In this document: piece by piece, positions 1-27,372 of the stretch
Numbering within the stretch: the first letter of the stretch is position 1
How the letters are laid out: each line of letters starts with the position of its first letter
DNA from: Candidatus Altimarinota bacterium
Lineage (GTDB): Bacteria; Patescibacteriota; Gracilibacteria; UBA4473
Length of the DNA stretch: 64,000 bases
Direction of reading: 5' to 3'
Assembly (NCBI GenBank): GCA_965231215.1
Contig: OZ246423.1
Location: 1,248,001 to 1,312,000, forward strand
Made by a program: the position numbers and the translations under genes
The notes under the pieces: model-generated
Told to the model about the DNA's origin: nothing
Seen by the model: the letters and a program-made list of their open reading frames with translations, nothing else
Database searches by the model: none

Positions 1-34
1 TCGTTCCCCCATCTTATTTTTTAATCAAATAAAA

Positions 35-187
35 ATGTCTAAAGAATATAAAACTCCTTCTCAATTTATATCTGATTTTAAATCTACTTCTGATCCAGAA
101 GAACAACTAAAAATCGCTAAGAGGTATGCAAATCAAAATTATAAAAAAGGTTTGATGCACACCTTTAATAAAAAATTTAATCGTTAA
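35..187 (+). CDS. Small hypothetical protein (50 aa, MSKEYKTPSQF...KKFNR)
   Basis: ATG at 35 and TAA at 185-187, read by hand; ends 4 nt before the rep ATG; same T-rich codon style. Confidence 0.55.
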   Translation: MSKEYKTPSQFISDFKSTSDPEEQLKIAKRYANQNYKKGLMHTFNKKFNR

Positions 188-191
188 AAAT

Positions 192-1160
192 ATGAAATCT
201 AAATACCTTTATTTTGGTTTAGACTTTCTTCGTCTAAATTTCAAGTCTAGTTATAAAAATATTAGATTTGATAATTATTTTTCTGGACTATCTGCTAACT
301 CAAATTTTAAAACGGTAGATTGGTTCGGTCTTACTTTTAACTGTACTTTCACTCAAACCGGTAATAAAAAAATTCTTATATTTAATTATAATGATTTTCC
401 TGTTTTTGTTTTGGAAGAATTTTTAGATGGTGGGATTAATACTCATACATCTTATGTAATTCAGTTTTATAGTGCTTTTTTTTATATAAAAGAACTGGAT
501 TTATTTTTGTTCGCTTTTTTAAATTATTATGGTCGTTACTGCTATATAACTCGCTTCGATATAGCTTTGGATGTTCCCTTGTCCATAAGTGATTTCGTTT
601 CAAAAGGGTATTCTACTAAGTTTCGAAAGGGGGCTAAGTTTGGTTTAAATGAAAATACTGGTGAATTTGAAACTTGGTATCTCGGGGCTAAAGGATGCTC
701 AAATAAAAAACACTTTATAAGAATCTATAACAAACTTTTAGACTCAAAGAAAAAATCAAAAATGATGCTTTTTTGGCAATACTTTGATTTTGAGGATGTC
801 ACCAGAATTGAAGTACAGGTTAATTCTCAATCCTGTTCTGTCTTTGGTGCAATACCGGATAATATAACAGATATTAACTTTCTCGGTTCTGTTTTTAAGT
901 CTTGTGCTGTAAATAAATCAGGCACTATTTTTAATCACTTAGAGGATTTAGATTTTATAAATTCTTCTTCTCTAATTGCTTATAAAAAGCCTAAAAAATC
1001 AGATATTATTGACAAACTTTCTTACGCTAAAACCATGCTTGGCTATGCTCAAACTTTATTGGATCAAGGTTTTGATCCTGTTTTGTTTTTAAGAGATAAT
1101 TTGAAAGATAATCAACCCAAGTATTCCAATGATAATTCCTCCAATCATGTACCAGTTTAG
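192..1160 (+). CDS. Rolling-circle replication initiator / relaxase, Rep_trans (RstA/NicK-like) family
   Basis: Motifs ITRFDIALD (R-x-D-x-A-x-D), TWYLG...IRIYNK (catalytic Tyr region) and TRIEVQV. Confidence 0.8.
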   Translation: MKSKYLYFGLDFLRLNFKSSYKNIRFDNYFSGLSANSNFKTVDWFGLTFNCTFTQTGNKKILIFNYNDFPVFVLEEFLDGGINTHTSYVIQFYSAFFYIKELDLFLFAFLNYYGRYCYITRFDIALDVPLSISDFVSKGYSTKFRKGAKFGLNENTGEFETWYLGAKGCSNKKHFIRIYNKLLDSKKKSKMMLFWQYFDFEDVTRIEVQVNSQSCSVFGAIPDNITDINFLGSVFKSCAVNKSGTIFNHLEDLDFINSSSLIAYKKPKKSDIIDKLSYAKTMLGYAQTLLDQGFDPVLFLRDNLKDNQPKYSNDNSSNHVPV

Positions 1161-1565
1161 AGGCATTTCTTCGTTATCTTTTAGTTCTAATTTTTCTATT
1201 ATCTCCGATTTCCCGATACACATTATCCTCATATTTGCACATTCTTTTCTTGTATAACTGTCTATTTCCAATGTGGTAAACATTATTCCTTTGTTTATTC
1301 CGTCTCTCAAAAGACAACCTCCTAAACACCTTACTTCTTTAACTGGTAAGGTGTTTAGTTTTTTTGTACCTTTATTCCATTTTTTACATTGTGTGTATAT
1401 TTTTTCTCCTCCAAATTCTGATATGACATCTACTCCCCTATCTCCGAAAGATTTAGTCACATAAATTTTTTTGTGTCCCATTAGCTCTAAAAATTCTTTA
1501 GCAAAAAATTCAAACTGTCTTGGGGTTAGGCTTTTGACTTGTTGGAATGTCTTATATTTAGTCAT
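1089..1565 (-). CDS. Mrr-like (Mrr_cat) restriction endonuclease domain protein with C-terminal TM helix
   Basis: LTPRQFEFF...GDRGVDVI...TQCKKW...V.EVR.L.G pattern (D..QxK); hydrophobic tail WYMIGGIIIGILGLIIFQII. Confidence 0.8.
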   Translation of the reverse strand: MTKYKTFQQVKSLTPRQFEFFAKEFLELMGHKKIYVTKSFGDRGVDVISEFGGEKIYTQCKKWNKGTKKLNTLPVKEVRCLGGCLLRDGINKGIMFTTLEIDSYTRKECANMRIMCIGKSEIIEKLELKDNEEMPLNWYMIGGIIIGILGLIIFQIIS

Positions 1566-1986
1566 CTTTGAAAATTGTCCTATACATGTGGTCTATACAT
1601 TTTTCAGCTGTTTTTGATTCTGCCTTTTCGTTCATAAAATCTTTTAAGGCAGTAATTTTTCTTTCGATCTCAGGTGTTTTTTCGATTTGTATGTATTTTT
1701 TACCCATTTTGGTATTTTTTTGAATTTCCCGGATTTTAAAATTAAATCCTTCTTTCCGTATTATATATTCTTTCTTGGTCTTTCTTTCAACTCCATATTT
1801 CTGTTCTCTAAAATCTTCATCATCTATATACGATGTATATTCTCCACAATTTTCACATTTTAACTTCCCTACTTCTTCATCGTATCTTAAATTTTTATGC
1901 CTAAACTCTCTTTCAGGGTAAGGGAATTTATATCTTTCTTTGTAGCATTTTTCGCATCTGGCTTTTACAATATTGATGTTAACCAT
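1558..1986 (-). CDS. Hypothetical Zn-ribbon protein (CEKC...CENC), Lys/Glu-rich
   Basis: ORF track 1558..2043 starts at TTG; ATG at 1986 preferred; two CxxC pairs; stop overlaps the Mrr start region. Confidence 0.65.
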   Translation of the reverse strand: MVNINIVKARCEKCYKERYKFPYPEREFRHKNLRYDEEVGKLKCENCGEYTSYIDDEDFREQKYGVERKTKKEYIIRKEGFNFKIREIQKNTKMGKKYIQIEKTPEIERKITALKDFMNEKAESKTAEKCIDHMYRTIFKDD

Positions 1987-2050
1987 TTTGTAGGGTTTTA
2001 AGTTTAACAAATCCCTACTAACTGCTTGACGATTATGTGTCAAATTTTAT

Positions 2051-22545: not shown

Positions 22546-24297
22546 ATGTCGATACAAGTATTACCACACAACATTCGTGATCAAATTGCTGCAGGAGAGG
22601 TGGTAGAACGGCCAGCCTCTGTGGTCAAAGAGTGTATAGAAAATGCACTAGATGCCGGGAGTACTAATATTGAAGTTACTCTAGAGGAAGGAGGCAAAAA
22701 GCGTATTGTTATCCTCGATAATGGCACCGGAATAAAAGCCACAGAGTTAGAACTAGCAGTAGAACGTCATGCTACTTCAAAGATTAAATCTATTGACGAT
22801 CTTTTTGCGATTCAGCATTTTGGGTTCAGGGGGGAAGCTTTGTCAGCGATTGCCGCCGTGTCGGACTTTACGATTACTTCCAAAACAAAAGAAGCTCAAA
22901 AGGCTTCACAACTTACCGTTTATGCGGGACGCAAAGAACCTATCCAAACGGTAGCTCATCCAAAAGGGACGACCATAGAAATTAAAAATTTATTTGCCCC
23001 CACCCCGGCGAGGTTGCAGTATCTGAAAACTTCAGAAACAGAGTACAGACAAGTTTTGAAAACCATACAACAATTTGCTTTAGCACATCCTCATGTGGGG
23101 TTTCGGCTTAACAAAGAGGCAAAAACAGTTTTAGATTTACCAACGGGTGAGACGGCTAGAACTCGGGCAGAAACGATTTTGAAACTTTCTAAAAATCAGA
23201 TTTTAGATTTGGATTTTGGGTATGACAATGTGAAAATTTCAGGATTTATTTGCGCGTCTGGATATTGCGCTAGAAGTCGGAATCATCAGTTTTTATTTGT
23301 AAATGGGCGCCCTATTGAGGATTCACGTATGGCTTATGCTATTCGGGAAGGGTATGTGCAAAGTGCAGGAATAGAAAAACACCTACACCCAATTTTTGCG
23401 CTCAATATTGAGCTAGATCCTTTACTCGTAGATGTAAACGTACACCCACGAAAATTAGAAGTGAAATTTGCAGAACCTGGAGAAGTGTTTGTAACGGTAA
23501 AAAAATCAGTAATGGAAGCGTTAAGATCCTTTAGTGAAATGGCAGCACTACCCCCAATACAACACAAAACTTTTACCTCTCCACCGCCTAAAACGCCCCA
23601 AAAACCAACGCTAATGTTAGTGCCAAAGTTTAGCCATAACTTTGCTTCGCGCAACACTCAAAGGGAACAACGGATTCCTAGACTTGAGAAAACAAATATT
23701 GAACCTGCCCCTGAAACTCCACAAAGCCTACGAGTTATTGGGCAAGTAGATAAAAAATATATTATAGCTGAATCTGAAAAAGGGATGTATATTTTTGATC
23801 AGCATGCACTACATGAAAGGCAGCGATTTGAACAGTTTTGGAATGAATGGAAGACTTCAAAAATTAAGAGTGAAACTTTGTTAGTCCCTCAAGTATTATC
23901 AATGAATGAAACACAAATTTCAGTGCTGGCAGAAAATACTAAAGCCTTAAATAAACTCGGTTTTAAAATAAACTTTACGACAGATAGTTCTGTGGAATTT
24001 TTAAGGGTACCAACTGTTCTAAAAGATGAAGATTTACAAAAAATTGCGGAATTAATGGTCAATTATTTTGACACAGAAAAGTTGGGAGAGCATGTCCTAG
24101 ATCAAGTAATGCGAAAAGCTTTAGAATACAAAGCGTGTCGTGGATCGATTATGTTTGGCGATAGACTTGATATTGCAGAAATGGAAAAACTTATTGCGGA
24201 CTTTGACTCTACTTCATGGAAATTACTCTGTCCTCATGGTAGACCTAACCATACGTTCATCCCCTTTTCTGATTTAGATCAACAATTTCATCGTTAA
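22546..24297 (+). CDS. mutL: DNA mismatch repair endonuclease MutL
   Basis: QIAAGEVVERPASVVKE, GFRGEAL, DVNVHP.K, DQHALHER, CPHGRP. Confidence 0.97.
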   Translation: MSIQVLPHNIRDQIAAGEVVERPASVVKECIENALDAGSTNIEVTLEEGGKKRIVILDNGTGIKATELELAVERHATSKIKSIDDLFAIQHFGFRGEALSAIAAVSDFTITSKTKEAQKASQLTVYAGRKEPIQTVAHPKGTTIEIKNLFAPTPARLQYLKTSETEYRQVLKTIQQFALAHPHVGFRLNKEAKTVLDLPTGETARTRAETILKLSKNQILDLDFGYDNVKISGFICASGYCARSRNHQFLFVNGRPIEDSRMAYAIREGYVQSAGIEKHLHPIFALNIELDPLLVDVNVHPRKLEVKFAEPGEVFVTVKKSVMEALRSFSEMAALPPIQHKTFTSPPPKTPQKPTLMLVPKFSHNFASRNTQREQRIPRLEKTNIEPAPETPQSLRVIGQVDKKYIIAESEKGMYIFDQHALHERQRFEQFWNEWKTSKIKSETLLVPQVLSMNETQISVLAENTKALNKLGFKINFTTDSSVEFLRVPTVLKDEDLQKIAELMVNYFDTEKLGEHVLDQVMRKALEYKACRGSIMFGDRLDIAEMEKLIADFDSTSWKLLCPHGRPNHTFIPFSDLDQQFHR

Positions 24298-24686
24298 AAT
24301 TTTGAACTTTTAAAAAATTCAGGCGAATAAGGTTGAGCTCGTTCTACCAAAATATTAGGAAATGTGTTTGCAAAGTTTTCTAAATTAAATTGTTGATCAT
24401 ACCCTAATAAAATCCTTTCTGGGGCGACTTCTTCTATCGTTTTAAAGAAATTTTGATCGGCTCTCCCCAAACGCACCTCTACATTCTCAAAATGCGTAAA
24501 TTCATAAATAACTCTTTCATATCTTTTTACCTCTGAATTTCTTGGCTTTTTGCCTTTAATTTTAAAAACAGTGTTGTCGCGGGCAATGATAATATGCAGC
24601 TCTGAAGAATGTGTATAACCAGACCACACATAGTGCTGATGACCAATATGAAAGTTGTCGAAGGTTCCAGCAATAAGTGTTTTCAT
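24294..24686 (-). CDS. Cytidylyltransferase-family nucleotidyltransferase, probable RibL-type FAD synthetase
   Basis: AGTFDNFHIGH (HxGH), IARD.TV.KIKG.KP, ILLGYDQ, terminal KSSK. Confidence 0.75.
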   Translation of the reverse strand: MKTLIAGTFDNFHIGHQHYVWSGYTHSSELHIIIARDNTVFKIKGKKPRNSEVKRYERVIYEFTHFENVEVRLGRADQNFFKTIEEVAPERILLGYDQQFNLENFANTFPNILVERAQPYSPEFFKSSKF

Positions 24687-24700
24687 AAAAAAAGTTTAAC

Positions 24701-27001
24701 CTAAACTTTTAAATTTTTCATATTAAACCCATGAAGATTTGCTAGCTCTGTATTTAGCCTCTTTCGGTTTTTTTTAATTTTTATTTTTTCAGGTTTTTCT
24801 AATTTACTAGGGTTTACCAAAATTTTATCCCAAAGTTCATGAGAGAAATTTACATCACATCTTTTATTTAATAGATCGTATAATCTTATTTTCATTTGAG
24901 TGAGGTCTATATCTTCTTCAAATTTGATGGCTTTTAAAGTATCCACTAAAGAAGCAACATTAGCTCCAATTCTAGTAAAAATAATTTCATCTGAAAGGTC
25001 TTTGTCCTCATCAAAAAGGATTTTCCAATCTTGAGCATGTAGAATGACCTCGCACCTAGCATTTAGCGCTTCTGCCATAAGCCTAAAGGCTTCATCCTCA
25101 CCTGGAACTATATCAGAAATATCCCTAATTCTGAGTACATGCTGATAGGCAAAAAACTCTTCTTCTTTTGGACCTTTAAAAAAGGAATTTTTAAACCTAT
25201 TTTTAATATCTTTCTTAGCTCTTTCAATAAAATCCTGCTCCTTTTTTCCTTCTTCGTAATCTATATAAGATCTATAGATTTCTGGATTGTTGGCTAAGTC
25301 CTTAACAATGTTCCACATAGAAGACTCTAATATTGGAATTGTAGGTCTAGATTCATCTACTAAATCTTGTAAAGCAACATATACATCGTGGTGATTAGCT
25401 CCGGACTCATTTTTTTTATAATCTTCCTCCGTCATAATTTGTATTTCAACTGGGATTCGGATGATTTCTTCTCCATATTTAATAGGGAAAGATCCCAATA
25501 ATTTGTACTCTTTTCTCTGGCTGTCTGCAGTTAAATTTTGTGAGGTTGATTCTTTAACTTTTAAGTTCCAAGATTCATCATATGGACTATTAGGACGGCC
25601 AAAATCAATTTGAAGTTTGTTTATTACCTCTCTAATATCATTTTCATTTGCTACGATAATACTTGCTCGATAAACGTCTTTTATATTACTTGGATCTACT
25701 TCTGATTTCCTTGTGCATTTAGTGGCCATTCTTTCTATGGCTTTAGCATTTGAATCTAATTTAAGGTAACACTTTCTCCCCCCTGTAAACCCTTTAATAA
25801 GTCTTCGACCTGTTTTTTTGCCCTGCGTTACCTCCTCTTCAGTTTTATCCCTTAGAGCTTGCCTAAATTCTTTTTCATGGGCATCGATAAACTGATAGTA
25901 TGGCAATTTGGATATTTTTTTGAATCCAACAAAAGATTTAAGCATTCTCCTGCCTAGGGGTGATTGGTTAGCCTTTTTTGCGAATTCAAAGAAGCTTTCA
26001 GGGTCTTGGATTTTGCGTATGAGAGGCATTAGATTTTTCTCAACCTTAGCTTGCAAGGCCCTAGCATCGTATTTAATGTAATCTCGCATAAATTGAGTTC
26101 TGGAAACTATGTGTGGCAAGCATCTCATTGCCATTAACCCTCCGGCCTGGATTGCTTCAGGTACATCTAAAGGAACTTCAAAGTGAGTTTCATATATTTT
26201 TTTAAATGCTTCAAAATCTGGACTGATACTAATAATATCCAACGGAGATATTATTTTATTCGTTTCTTGTACTGAATTAGAATCATTAATATCTTTAACA
26301 GTCATAGGCTTCCCTGAATTGGCTACCGCTAAAGCTTTGGCTCTAGTTTCTTCAGTCACCTGCTCCATTCGCTTTAGAGCCTCTTCTACTTGGGCTGCTC
26401 CTAAATGACTATTGCTAGCGATAAGTTCTCTAGTTTCTGGATCAGATAGTATAGCTGGACCAGAGGGCTCCCAGCTAATTTCTTCATGACTATCATCGCT
26501 GTGTTGTAAAGCGGTCCAAGTCTCTGGAAGATTTTCATATTCTTCAGGTTCTAAGATAACAAGCCAAAAAGTAATTCTTTTGTGGTCGATATGAGGTATT
26601 TTTTTAAAGGAGCCATTAGTCATAGCGGTTTCAGTGGTATACAACTTTTGAAATCGATTGAGATGCACATATAGCCCACTTTCTTCTTCTAATTCTTCGC
26701 CGGCCTTTTTTAAACGTGAAAGTTCTTTTTCTGGCTCTGACATAGCCAAAAAAGCGGTTTGTGCTGCTTTATCATCAAAAGTCTTTCCCCCAGGGATTTC
26801 ATATTTGCAGGCTTTGTCTGGACTTTTTCCTATACGATCTCCACTTTCACCATGATTCGAAGCCACAAGGATCGGTGGGTGGTTTTCTTCTCCTGGTTTT
26901 GGTTTTCGCATTACAAGGACTCTCTGAGTCTCCAAAAACCTTTCAGCTCTAATTGCTTGGGGTTCCTTTTCTAACATTATGCTTGAAGGTCTCTCATTCA
27001 T
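24701..27001 (-). CDS. NUDIX hydrolase fused to a RelA/SpoT-like nucleotidyltransferase domain (766 aa)
   Basis: N-terminal YEIPGGK...GEELEEESGL (NUDIX box with insertion); central K..ERM.TK..RK...IKDVYRASIIV...PVEIQIMT...NESGANHHDVY. Confidence 0.7.
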   Translation of the reverse strand: MNERPSSIMLEKEPQAIRAERFLETQRVLVMRKPKPGEENHPPILVASNHGESGDRIGKSPDKACKYEIPGGKTFDDKAAQTAFLAMSEPEKELSRLKKAGEELEEESGLYVHLNRFQKLYTTETAMTNGSFKKIPHIDHKRITFWLVILEPEEYENLPETWTALQHSDDSHEEISWEPSGPAILSDPETRELIASNSHLGAAQVEEALKRMEQVTEETRAKALAVANSGKPMTVKDINDSNSVQETNKIISPLDIISISPDFEAFKKIYETHFEVPLDVPEAIQAGGLMAMRCLPHIVSRTQFMRDYIKYDARALQAKVEKNLMPLIRKIQDPESFFEFAKKANQSPLGRRMLKSFVGFKKISKLPYYQFIDAHEKEFRQALRDKTEEEVTQGKKTGRRLIKGFTGGRKCYLKLDSNAKAIERMATKCTRKSEVDPSNIKDVYRASIIVANENDIREVINKLQIDFGRPNSPYDESWNLKVKESTSQNLTADSQRKEYKLLGSFPIKYGEEIIRIPVEIQIMTEEDYKKNESGANHHDVYVALQDLVDESRPTIPILESSMWNIVKDLANNPEIYRSYIDYEEGKKEQDFIERAKKDIKNRFKNSFFKGPKEEEFFAYQHVLRIRDISDIVPGEDEAFRLMAEALNARCEVILHAQDWKILFDEDKDLSDEIIFTRIGANVASLVDTLKAIKFEEDIDLTQMKIRLYDLLNKRCDVNFSHELWDKILVNPSKLEKPEKIKIKKNRKRLNTELANLHGFNMKNLKV

Positions 27002-27007
27002 CCCCTT

Positions 27008-27016
27008 ATTATATCA
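27008..27016 (-). promoter_or_regulatory. Extended -10 promoter (TGATATAAT) 6 nt upstream of the ATG, implying a leaderless mRNA
   Basis: - strand reads TGATATAAT-AAGGGG-ATG. Confidence 0.6.
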
Positions 27017-27069
27017 AAAAATTTAATTTAAATCGATTTTTTTTTGCTTTATGATTCTTACTGGTAAAA

Positions 27070-27372
27070 ATGAAACAAATCATAAACATGCTTTCACAAG
27101 ACGAAGTCGTACATATTGCAAAATTGGCTAAAATCAAGCTAAAAAATTCAGAAATTGAAAAATTTTCAACGGAGCTTTCCAGTATTCTTGGTTTTTTTGC
27201 TGACTTACAAGAGGTAGATACTAAAGGCATAACCGAAACCTCACAAGTAACCGGACTAGAAAATGAAACCAGACCCGATGAAGTAAAAGTGACAGAAAAT
27301 GAAGACGAACTCCTTGAATGTAGTCCTCACCCAGTGGAAAACCACAGCATTAAAATTCCTAAAATTATGTAA
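27070..27372 (+). CDS. gatC: Asp/Glu-tRNA amidotransferase subunit C
   Basis: EVVHIAKLAKI.L, LQEVDT.G...TSQVTGLEN..R.D, IKIPKIM; stop overlaps the gatA start. Confidence 0.93.
   Translation: MKQIINMLSQDEVVHIAKLAKIKLKNSEIEKFSTELSSILGFFADLQEVDTKGITETSQVTGLENETRPDEVKVTENEDELLECSPHPVENHSIKIPKIM

Follow-up and report, generated by a model that had tools for sequence, protein, structure and literature searches.

A Nudix domain joined to a divergent alarmone synthetase

We analyzed a stretch of 64,000 nucleotides from the chromosome of a Candidatus Altimarinota bacterium (Patescibacteriota, class Gracilibacteria; assembly GCA_965231215.1, contig OZ246423.1, positions 1,248,001 to 1,312,000), hereafter the window, and followed up one long gene on its minus strand. 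The gene is real, and the 766 residues of its product, which we call P0001, join a Nudix-type hydrolase to a highly diverged relative of the alarmone synthetases (Table 1). P0001 probably makes or trims an unusual nucleotide. The RelA/SpoT homologue (RSH) enzymes, to which its central domain is related, are central bacterial stress-signaling enzymes, and regulation in the Patescibacteria is almost unstudied. The source genome, G000, consists of a single contig of 1,326,059 bp with a completeness of 99.3%, and the window looks like normal bacterial chromosome, with dense coding under translation table 11. An orthologue of 755 residues in genome G004 is 42-44% identical to P0001 and aligns across residues 11-760. 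The P0001 sequence shows no hydrophobic signal at its N-terminus. The short motifs by which a first-pass annotation of this DNA had recognized the two enzymes all lie where it had placed them.

Table 1. Features of the P0001 gene, its neighbors and related genes. Locations are window positions unless a contig or locus is named.
Feature	P0001 residues	Location	Strand	Description
P0001, whole gene		24701..27001	-	766 codons plus stop, one uninterrupted frame, ATG start
Nudix-fold domain	~15-219	26345..26959	-	
Split Nudix box	68-110	26672..26800	-	E68-x-P-G-G-K, inserted helix of ~16-20 residues, then E102-E103-L-E-E106-E107-S-G109-L
Connector	220-360	25922..26344	-	end of a long helix (202-228), strand motif S252-x-L-D255, helical stretch into the synthetase; secondary structure from the model
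RelA/SpoT-type SYNTH fold	~361-605	25187..25921	-	Pfam match at 419-541, window 25379..25747
C-terminal domain	~606-766	24704..25186	-	mostly helical, family-specific
YEIPGGK	67-73			
GEELEEESGL	101-110			
SHEEISW	171-177			
KAIERMATKCTRK	420-432			
IKDVYRASIIV	440-450			
NLTADSQRKEYK	489-500			
PVEIQIMT	517-524			
NESGANHHDVY	531-541			
gatC		27070..27372	+	PF02686; divergent, 68 nucleotides from the P0001 start codon
Adenylyl/cytidylyltransferase-like gene		24294..24686	-	130 aa; PF01467 27.3 bits (cut-off 21), TIGR00125 29.5 bits
Canonical Rel		G000:C1:1139021-1142362 (L001)		684 aa; HD, NGYQSLH, EIQIRT and TGS-type motifs
Small synthetase		G000:C1:1126697-1130023 (L002)		296 aa; canonical motifs
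Stand-alone Nudix protein, genus g7		L021:1522-2091	+	190-195 aa; insertion subtype
Stand-alone Nudix protein, genus g7		L022:1480-2064	-	190-195 aa; insertion subtype

The synthetase domain is recognized by Pfam, where RelA_SpoT (PF04607) matches residues 419-541 of P0001 over profile positions 3-108 of 113; the E-value is 7e-6, and the score of 26.7 bits falls just short of the cut-off of 27. In a six-frame search of the genome, the same stretch scored 29.5 bits, above that cut-off. RelA_SpoT is also matched by 11 of 12 aligned full-length relatives (best E 1.5e-8), and hhalign pairs the family's central domain with the canonical Rel and small alarmone synthetase (SAS) domains of this genome and its class over 116 columns (98.2% probability, E 6e-14). 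For the N-terminal domain, five of the 12 relatives match NUDIX at E<=1 (best 2.2e-5), and P0004 reaches 20.5 bits with the NUDIX profile PF00293 against a cut-off of 21.1. Stand-alone homologues of this domain at loci L021 and L022 (genomes G032 and G010) score 34.3 and 39.4 bits with the same profile. A Pfam scan of P0001 itself at E<=10 gave no HD, TGS, ACT or NUDIX family. The lack of the first three had been noted at first pass; because P0001 has no Pfam NUDIX match of its own, its Nudix assignment rests on its relatives and its fold.

An AlphaFold2 model built on a 25-sequence alignment (A2) has a predicted local distance difference test score (pLDDT) of 87.6 and a predicted template modeling score of 0.89, and it contains both the alpha/beta/alpha fold of Nudix enzymes and the alpha/beta fold of SYNTH domains. 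A single-sequence model (pLDDT 36.9) was discarded. Searching the PDB with Foldseek yielded 15 matches at E<=1e-3, each of them a Nudix hydrolase or a small alarmone synthetase, RelP or RelQ, and the structure searches also match Rel. The central domain therefore models as a RelA/SpoT fold, and the two domain calls of the first-pass annotation hold. Comparing P0001 with PDB sequences by phmmer gave 0 matches at E<=10, and the family profile gave non-significant PDB matches only, including two Nudix chains (E 0.78 and 0.97) but not one RSH chain, so that fold, Pfam and hhalign are what connect P0001 to solved RSH structures. Because sequence, relatives and structure agree, we regard both assignments as sound. 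By its fold, its profile match and its catalytic residues, P0001 belongs to the RSH superfamily.

P0004 and P0006 matched Nudix phrogs only in PHROGs, and phage proteins named Nudix or RelA/SpoT were among the matches of a BFVD search. The likeness to TIGR04552 proposed at first pass stands as a short motif match around EIQI...H..Y but not as family membership, as TIGR04552 scores 19.0 bits against a cut-off of 125 (a 36-position match) and TIGR04562 18.3 against 140, both over 30-47 residues (499-545). Matches to Stonustoxin_helical (E 0.0071, 16.9 bits against 27, in one of 12 members) and to the NCBIfam GatB model (E 0.077) were judged to be chance. With a Pfam match just at the cut-off, no Nudix match and no named relatives, P0001 is a protein that standard annotation overlooks.

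A conserved catalytic core with apparently rebuilt base pockets

To describe the active site, we mapped P0001 onto Staphylococcus aureus RelP (SaRelP) by motif spacing and hhalign, and we counted conservation over the 22 family members that carry a synthetase. In SaRelP, Arg78 and Arg112 stack on the donor adenine; Lys80, Lys88, Arg91 and Ser84 touch phosphates, Ser84 the alpha-phosphate; Asp107 and Glu174 hold Mg2+; and His190 touches the ribose (PMC5794853). The metal ligands correspond to D442 and E519 of P0001, the phosphate contacts Lys80, Lys88 and Arg91 to K420, K428 and K432 (or R431), and the ribose contact to H538, while Ser84 is replaced by R424. D442, E519, K420 and K428 are retained in all 22 members, as are N489 and Y541; R424 and H538 are retained in 21 and Q521 in 19. 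The catalytic Asp and Glu, on whose conservation the first-pass annotation had staked its case, are thus invariant.

P0001 has neither adenine-stacking arginine: N418 takes the place of Arg78, and S447 (window about 25661..25663) that of Arg112. Position 418 is Arg in 0 of the 22 members, and position 447 is Arg in 18, with Ser in P0001 alone. On the acceptor side, the G-loop Tyr151 of SaRelP is called critical in all (p)ppGpp synthetases (PMC5794853), and Y128 of FaRel2 holds the acceptor base adenine, with a positive patch near the conserved Tyr described for all alarmone synthetases (PMC11782079). Among the examples discussed in these two papers, the acceptor-loop Tyr is conserved in enzymes that make (p)ppGpp, make (pp)pApp or modify tRNA. 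It is absent from all 22 synthetase-bearing members of the P0001 family. The acceptor loop of P0001, between strands 481-483 and 499-509 (beta3-beta4), reads VKESTSQNLTADSQR and holds no aromatic residue. Across the family it follows the pattern N-x-x-[A/R]-[D/G/S], with Asn489 invariant and Asp493, Arg496 and Lys500 mostly conserved.

These differences set P0001 apart from RelP/SAS2 and RelQ/SAS1 (PDB 6ex0, 6fgk, 5dec and 5ded; PF04607). Where those enzymes have the G-loop Tyr, P0001 has the invariant Asn with its Asp, Arg and Lys; the first adenine-stacking Arg becomes N418, the alpha-phosphate Ser becomes Arg424, and the P0001 family has Met, Ile, Leu or Val in place of the Arg of EIQIRT. 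Its SYNTH domain is also embedded in a 766-residue protein with Nudix and C-terminal modules. The altered first Syn1 arginine and the altered guanine-selecting loop that the first-pass annotation had pointed out are both there. Judged from the residues at these positions, the catalytic core appears to be under strong constraint while both base pockets seem to have been rebuilt, and P0001 lacks two traits of characterized RSH members, the G-loop Tyr and the pair of adenine-stacking arginines. Because the Tyr is gone and P0001 lacks the two arginines, a product other than (p)ppGpp, as had been suggested at first pass, is plausible. A Tyr-less core fused to a Nudix domain could yield a product that widens the known chemistry of the superfamily, and the family would show that hydrolase modules besides HD can be recruited.

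The missing arginines might instead reflect a loss. Because Ser447 replaces an Arg found in 18 of 22 members, the activity of P0001 may be weakened or its donor changed. Taken to its end, this would make the synthetase of this genome an impaired enzyme, a pseudoenzyme or scaffold within an active family; the Ser five residues after the catalytic Asp, where SaRelP has Arg112, is unique among the 22 members and N418 points the same way. Set against this, the metal and phosphate ligands are all intact, R424 and R445, which are particular to the family, are close by and might make up for the loss, and the 766-residue frame is complete and well modeled. We consider such a decay highly improbable.

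The Nudix domain is atypical and appears to be accessory

Fifteen sequences carry the Nudix domain, including two stand-alone homologues. The catalytic helix of P0001 reads as REUXEEXGU with the Arg replaced by Glu. Its glutamates are widely shared: E103 is present in 13 of the 15 sequences, E106 in 12 (with Gln in two more) and E107 in 13. The box Arg position, by comparison, reads E, N, K, R, R, D, A, V, S, K, R, D, E, R, R over the 15 copies. An insertion of ~16-20 residues separates P-G-G-K from the catalytic helix in 14 of them, and AlphaFold2 models it as an extra helix (78-85) and a lengthened box helix (89-108). P0001 does not keep the canonical 23-residue spacing GX5EX7REUXEEXGU, which only P0006 retains. 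A [D/E]-D-x-H motif at residues 169-172 is near-universal, and the stand-alone homologues carry ED-x-H together with the same insertion. In its box insertion, its unconserved box Arg, its [D/E]-D-x-H motif and its fused synthetase, the domain differs from alarmone Nudix hydrolases such as Ndx8 and from the Nudix superfamily at large, and no substrate-specificity motif of a known Nudix subfamily was recognized in it. The pattern of conservation fits a Nudix domain that is active in most members and of an atypical subtype.

We also considered that the domain might be a non-catalytic regulator that binds a ligand, as in NrtR or the inactive HD of RelA, and switches the synthetase in response to, for example, ADP-ribose. 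A sensor of this kind would suit the inserted helix that breaks the box spacing, the unconserved box Arg, the lack of a Pfam NUDIX match in P0001 and the two members (G030 and P0010) that keep the domain after losing its glutamates. However, metal-binding glutamates kept in 12-13 of 15 copies, including stand-alone homologues above the NUDIX cut-off, are the pattern expected from selection for catalysis, and the structural match to NrtR is tied with dozens of active hydrolases. We therefore think a pure sensor quite unlikely. The architecture also differs from that of NrtR and NadM-Nudix, which belong to NAD/ADP-ribose metabolism: their partner is a winged-helix DNA-binding domain or an NMN adenylyltransferase, whereas that of P0001 is a RelA/SpoT-type synthetase, and their structural matches to P0001 tie with many other Nudix enzymes.

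Two side observations concern the Nudix sequences. In the metagenomic proteins P0005, P0007 and P0008, Trp occupies positions equivalent to P0001 residues 71, 72 and 109, where all other members have Gly; this is expected if UGA encodes Gly in their lineages, as under table 25, and was read as Trp. In-frame TGA codons also occur within the matches of several genomes of the same class. Near each of the stand-alone Nudix genes at L021 and L022 lies an open reading frame (ORF) of ~300 residues that opens with a hydrophobic, signal-peptide-like N-terminus.

The family itself is tiny and specific to one taxonomic family of Patescibacteria. When 1.84 billion representatives were searched exhaustively with HMMER, 16 proteins, the query among them, reached E<=1e-3 and eight of these E<=1e-30. 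A word-indexed protein search returned the query alone and missed the orthologue that is 42-44% identical, making it uninformative on distribution. Used as a query, P0001 matched nine of 61 related genomes, and the gene is single-copy. Across 401 genomes of the class, the family profile gave strong matches (E<=1e-11) solely in the organism's own taxonomic family, f1. The weaker matches, with E-values of 2.3e-7 or above, look for the most part like ordinary long RSH or small Nudix genes in their profile range and frame length. In a phylum sample of 401 genomes, nothing beyond the class reached E<=1e-5 with the same profile.

Within this small family, the fusion recurs, as Nudix and synthetase domains are joined in 13 proteins of the alignment; it is not the one-off that had been a concern at first pass. 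It is also not universal. The syntenic orthologues of two genomes of the same genus, G001 (509 residues) and G003 (564 residues), have no Nudix domain, and the stretch that separates gatC from their start codons is too short to hold one. Nudix-less relatives begin just ahead of the S252-x-L-D255 motif of the connector, whose S/T252 and D255 are found in 21 and 20, respectively, of the 22 synthetase-bearing relatives. It follows from these orthologues that the synthetase does not need Nudix in cis and that the conserved core consists of the S-x-L-D strand, the helical connector, SYNTH and the C-terminal domain. The converse arrangement is seen in genomes G010 and G032, where the Nudix protein stands alone and the only family match listed covers the Nudix part of the profile, with none of synthetase type. 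Comparing these sequences, the Nudix domain appears to be an accessory module of the family.

We found no paper describing a Nudix-SYNTH fusion, although one might be listed in the supplementary tables of classification papers. PMC7229694 contains 0 mentions of Nudix in its main text, and the available text of PMC3153485 mentions Nudix three times, never as a fusion to a synthetase.

The C-terminal domain belongs to the part of P0001 that every full-length family member retains. R624, L646, N647 and W659 are nearly invariant in it, and it is confidently modeled, with pLDDT means of mostly 87-97 over blocks of ten residues and 81 in the last block. The family profile found no PDB sequence match for this domain, and the best score in the ESM Atlas was 0.76, below the level of a lead. 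We saw no zinc-finger-like match, in structure searches that were dominated by Nudix rows and barely probed this domain. The C-terminal domain is likely the regulatory part of the protein.

The genome has canonical alarmone enzymes

NahA, MutT and NudG are Nudix enzymes that degrade (p)ppGpp. P0001 could accordingly make and break (p)ppGpp in the ordinary way, with Nudix merely standing in for HD: both domain types are there, HD is absent, and a (p)ppGpp-degrading Nudix is known in Thermus Ndx8 (cited in PMC3153485). We regard this as very unlikely. The G-loop Tyr is missing from every synthetase-bearing member and the beta3-beta4 loop of P0001 has no aromatic residue in its stead, Nudix-less orthologues exist, and the genome already has a canonical, HD-bearing Rel and a canonical SAS (Table 1), so that the canonical alarmone job is covered. 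The genome also contains three ordinary Nudix genes. Compared with long RSH enzymes (Rel/SpoT; Bacillus subtilis Rel, PDB 8acu; the genome's own Rel), which carry HD, TGS and ACT/RRM domains, P0001 has none of these that we could find, its N-terminal enzyme is a Nudix domain that is not universal in its family, and its acceptor loop is non-canonical. The genome's small synthetase has an extension of ~170 residues on the N-terminal side of its canonical SYNTH domain.

A fixed locus and a fast-changing gene

The P0001 gene stands head-to-head with gatC. A gatC homologue adjoins the family member in nine genomes (G000, G004, G013, G003, G001, G002, G259, G022 and G015), and the neighborhood of a divergent gatC and a GatA-like gene is found in at least four genera; the GatA label was read from sequence, and gatC alone was profile-scanned. 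That a single-copy gene occupies this fixed gatC-gatA locus in nine genomes of at least four genera speaks for vertical inheritance and against a mobile cassette. The arrangement could be plain small-genome synteny or could reflect shared regulation with a tRNA-dependent pathway. The head-to-head layout occurs at eight loci besides the window (L005, L007, L008, L009, L011, L016, L023 and L024); the gap to gatC is 68 nucleotides in the window (27001..27070) and about 75-110 nucleotides, by ORF coordinates, in five other loci.

The gene at this steady position changes quickly. Within genus g1, identity to this genome's copies is 76-80% for the GatA-like protein, 58-63% for GatC, 48-55% for the 130-residue neighbor and 50-56% for the MutL-like protein. 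For P0001 it is 42% over the full length in G004 and 23-31% over 141-173 residues in G002, G003 and G001, and in BLAST comparisons across the genus the SYNTH core alone stays alignable. Such a combination of a fixed locus with very fast divergence is an unexplained contrast that is worth following.

Divergence of this kind brings to mind the toxic small alarmone synthetases (toxSAS), and P0001 might be a conflict protein like these or CapRel. Its SYNTH domain would then arrest growth as a toxin, by pyrophosphorylating the 3' ends of tRNA or depleting ATP. The C-terminal domain, and Nudix where there is one, would restrain it until the fast-evolving flanks sense a cue from phage or host and release it. 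With FaRel2, CapRel, FaRel and Tas1, P0001 shares a divergent SYNTH domain, a probable non-guanosine acceptor and fast evolution, and with CapRel an attached extra domain that could act in cis. The gene diverges far faster than its neighbors at a fixed locus, an N-terminal domain has been gained or lost within one genus, only the SYNTH core can be aligned by BLAST across that genus, and the C-terminal domain is always attached, like the autoinhibitory pZFD of CapRel (PMC11782079). Against this stand a single-copy gene that is syntenic beside gatC-gatA in at least four genera, a housekeeping locus outside any variable island, and the absence of the G-loop Tyr that FaRel2 uses for the acceptor adenine. 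We also recognized no antitoxin or immunity gene and no secretion context like those of toxSAS systems, and no small neighboring gene, as a potential partner, is conserved beyond genus g1. Its C-terminal domain is made of ~160 mostly helical residues with no zinc-finger-like match in the searches that barely probed it. A PADLOC search of six members gave no match in four, including P0001, and two weak, short matches to PDC-S07 and PDC-S33. On balance, we take a conflict role to be unlikely, if a serious contender.

A proposed make-and-trim enzyme

The reading that we favor, tentatively and at somewhat less than an even chance, is that P0001 is a three-module cytoplasmic enzyme of the RSH superfamily, vertically inherited, in which a non-canonical pyrophosphotransferase makes a product that the cis Nudix domain trims and the C-terminal domain regulates. 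In this proposal, the SYNTH domain would still transfer pyrophosphate from a nucleoside triphosphate to the 3'-OH of an acceptor, as its retained ligands suggest. The acceptor, and perhaps the donor too, would differ from the canonical pair of GDP/GTP and ATP, so that the product would be something other than (p)ppGpp. The acceptor may be a free nucleotide rather than tRNA; we favor this in view of a basic cluster that flanks the acceptor loop and of the nucleotide hydrolase joined to the synthetase. NahA trims (p)ppGpp, and the Nudix domain of P0001 would most likely degrade or trim the SYNTH product in a similar make/break or make/trim cycle. P0001 would thereby form a second node of nucleotide signaling, in addition to the canonical Rel and the small synthetase of this genome.

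Several points weigh against this proposal. The orthologues of G001 and G003 manage without the Nudix domain, its glutamates are lost in two of 15 copies, and in P0001 itself the box spacing is broken and the box Arg is Glu. N418 and S447 could mean reduced activity in P0001, to judge from what they replace. The divergence of the gene, much faster than that of its neighbors, fits a conflict role better than housekeeping signaling. Finally, we infer the product, the donor and the Nudix substrate alike. The first-pass annotation had cast the protein as one in which Nudix replaces HD. This stands insofar as P0001 has the two domain types and no HD, but an obligatory make/break pair is undercut by the Nudix-less orthologues, the two copies without glutamates, the stand-alone Nudix proteins of G010 and G032, and the canonical Rel and SAS of the genome. 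The roles that it put forward, as a dormancy switch, a self-neutralizing toxin or a host-directed effector, are conjectural.

A bolder form of the proposal is that the family represents a new class of long RSH in candidate-phyla bacteria, with Nudix in the place of HD, a Tyr-less pocket and a novel messenger, neither (p)ppGpp nor (pp)pApp, that is trimmed in cis. We hold this to be rather improbable. Were it true, symbionts with reduced genomes would have a second signaling system, possibly tied to host or phage interaction.

Neighboring genes and other features of the window

Downstream of the P0001 gene, all five genomes of genus g1 (G000-G004) have the 130-residue adenylyl/cytidylyltransferase-like gene followed by a MutL-like gene. 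In the window, the 130-residue gene starts 14 nucleotides past the P0001 stop codon with no terminator-like site between them, and from this spacing the two genes are probably co-transcribed. Its product is a minimal nucleotidyltransferase with a HIGH motif, whose best likenesses below the cut-off are RfaE domain II, PPAT and FAD synthetase. At the edge of the window, positions 1..2000 have a G+C content of 29.3%, compared with 35-41% across the remaining window.

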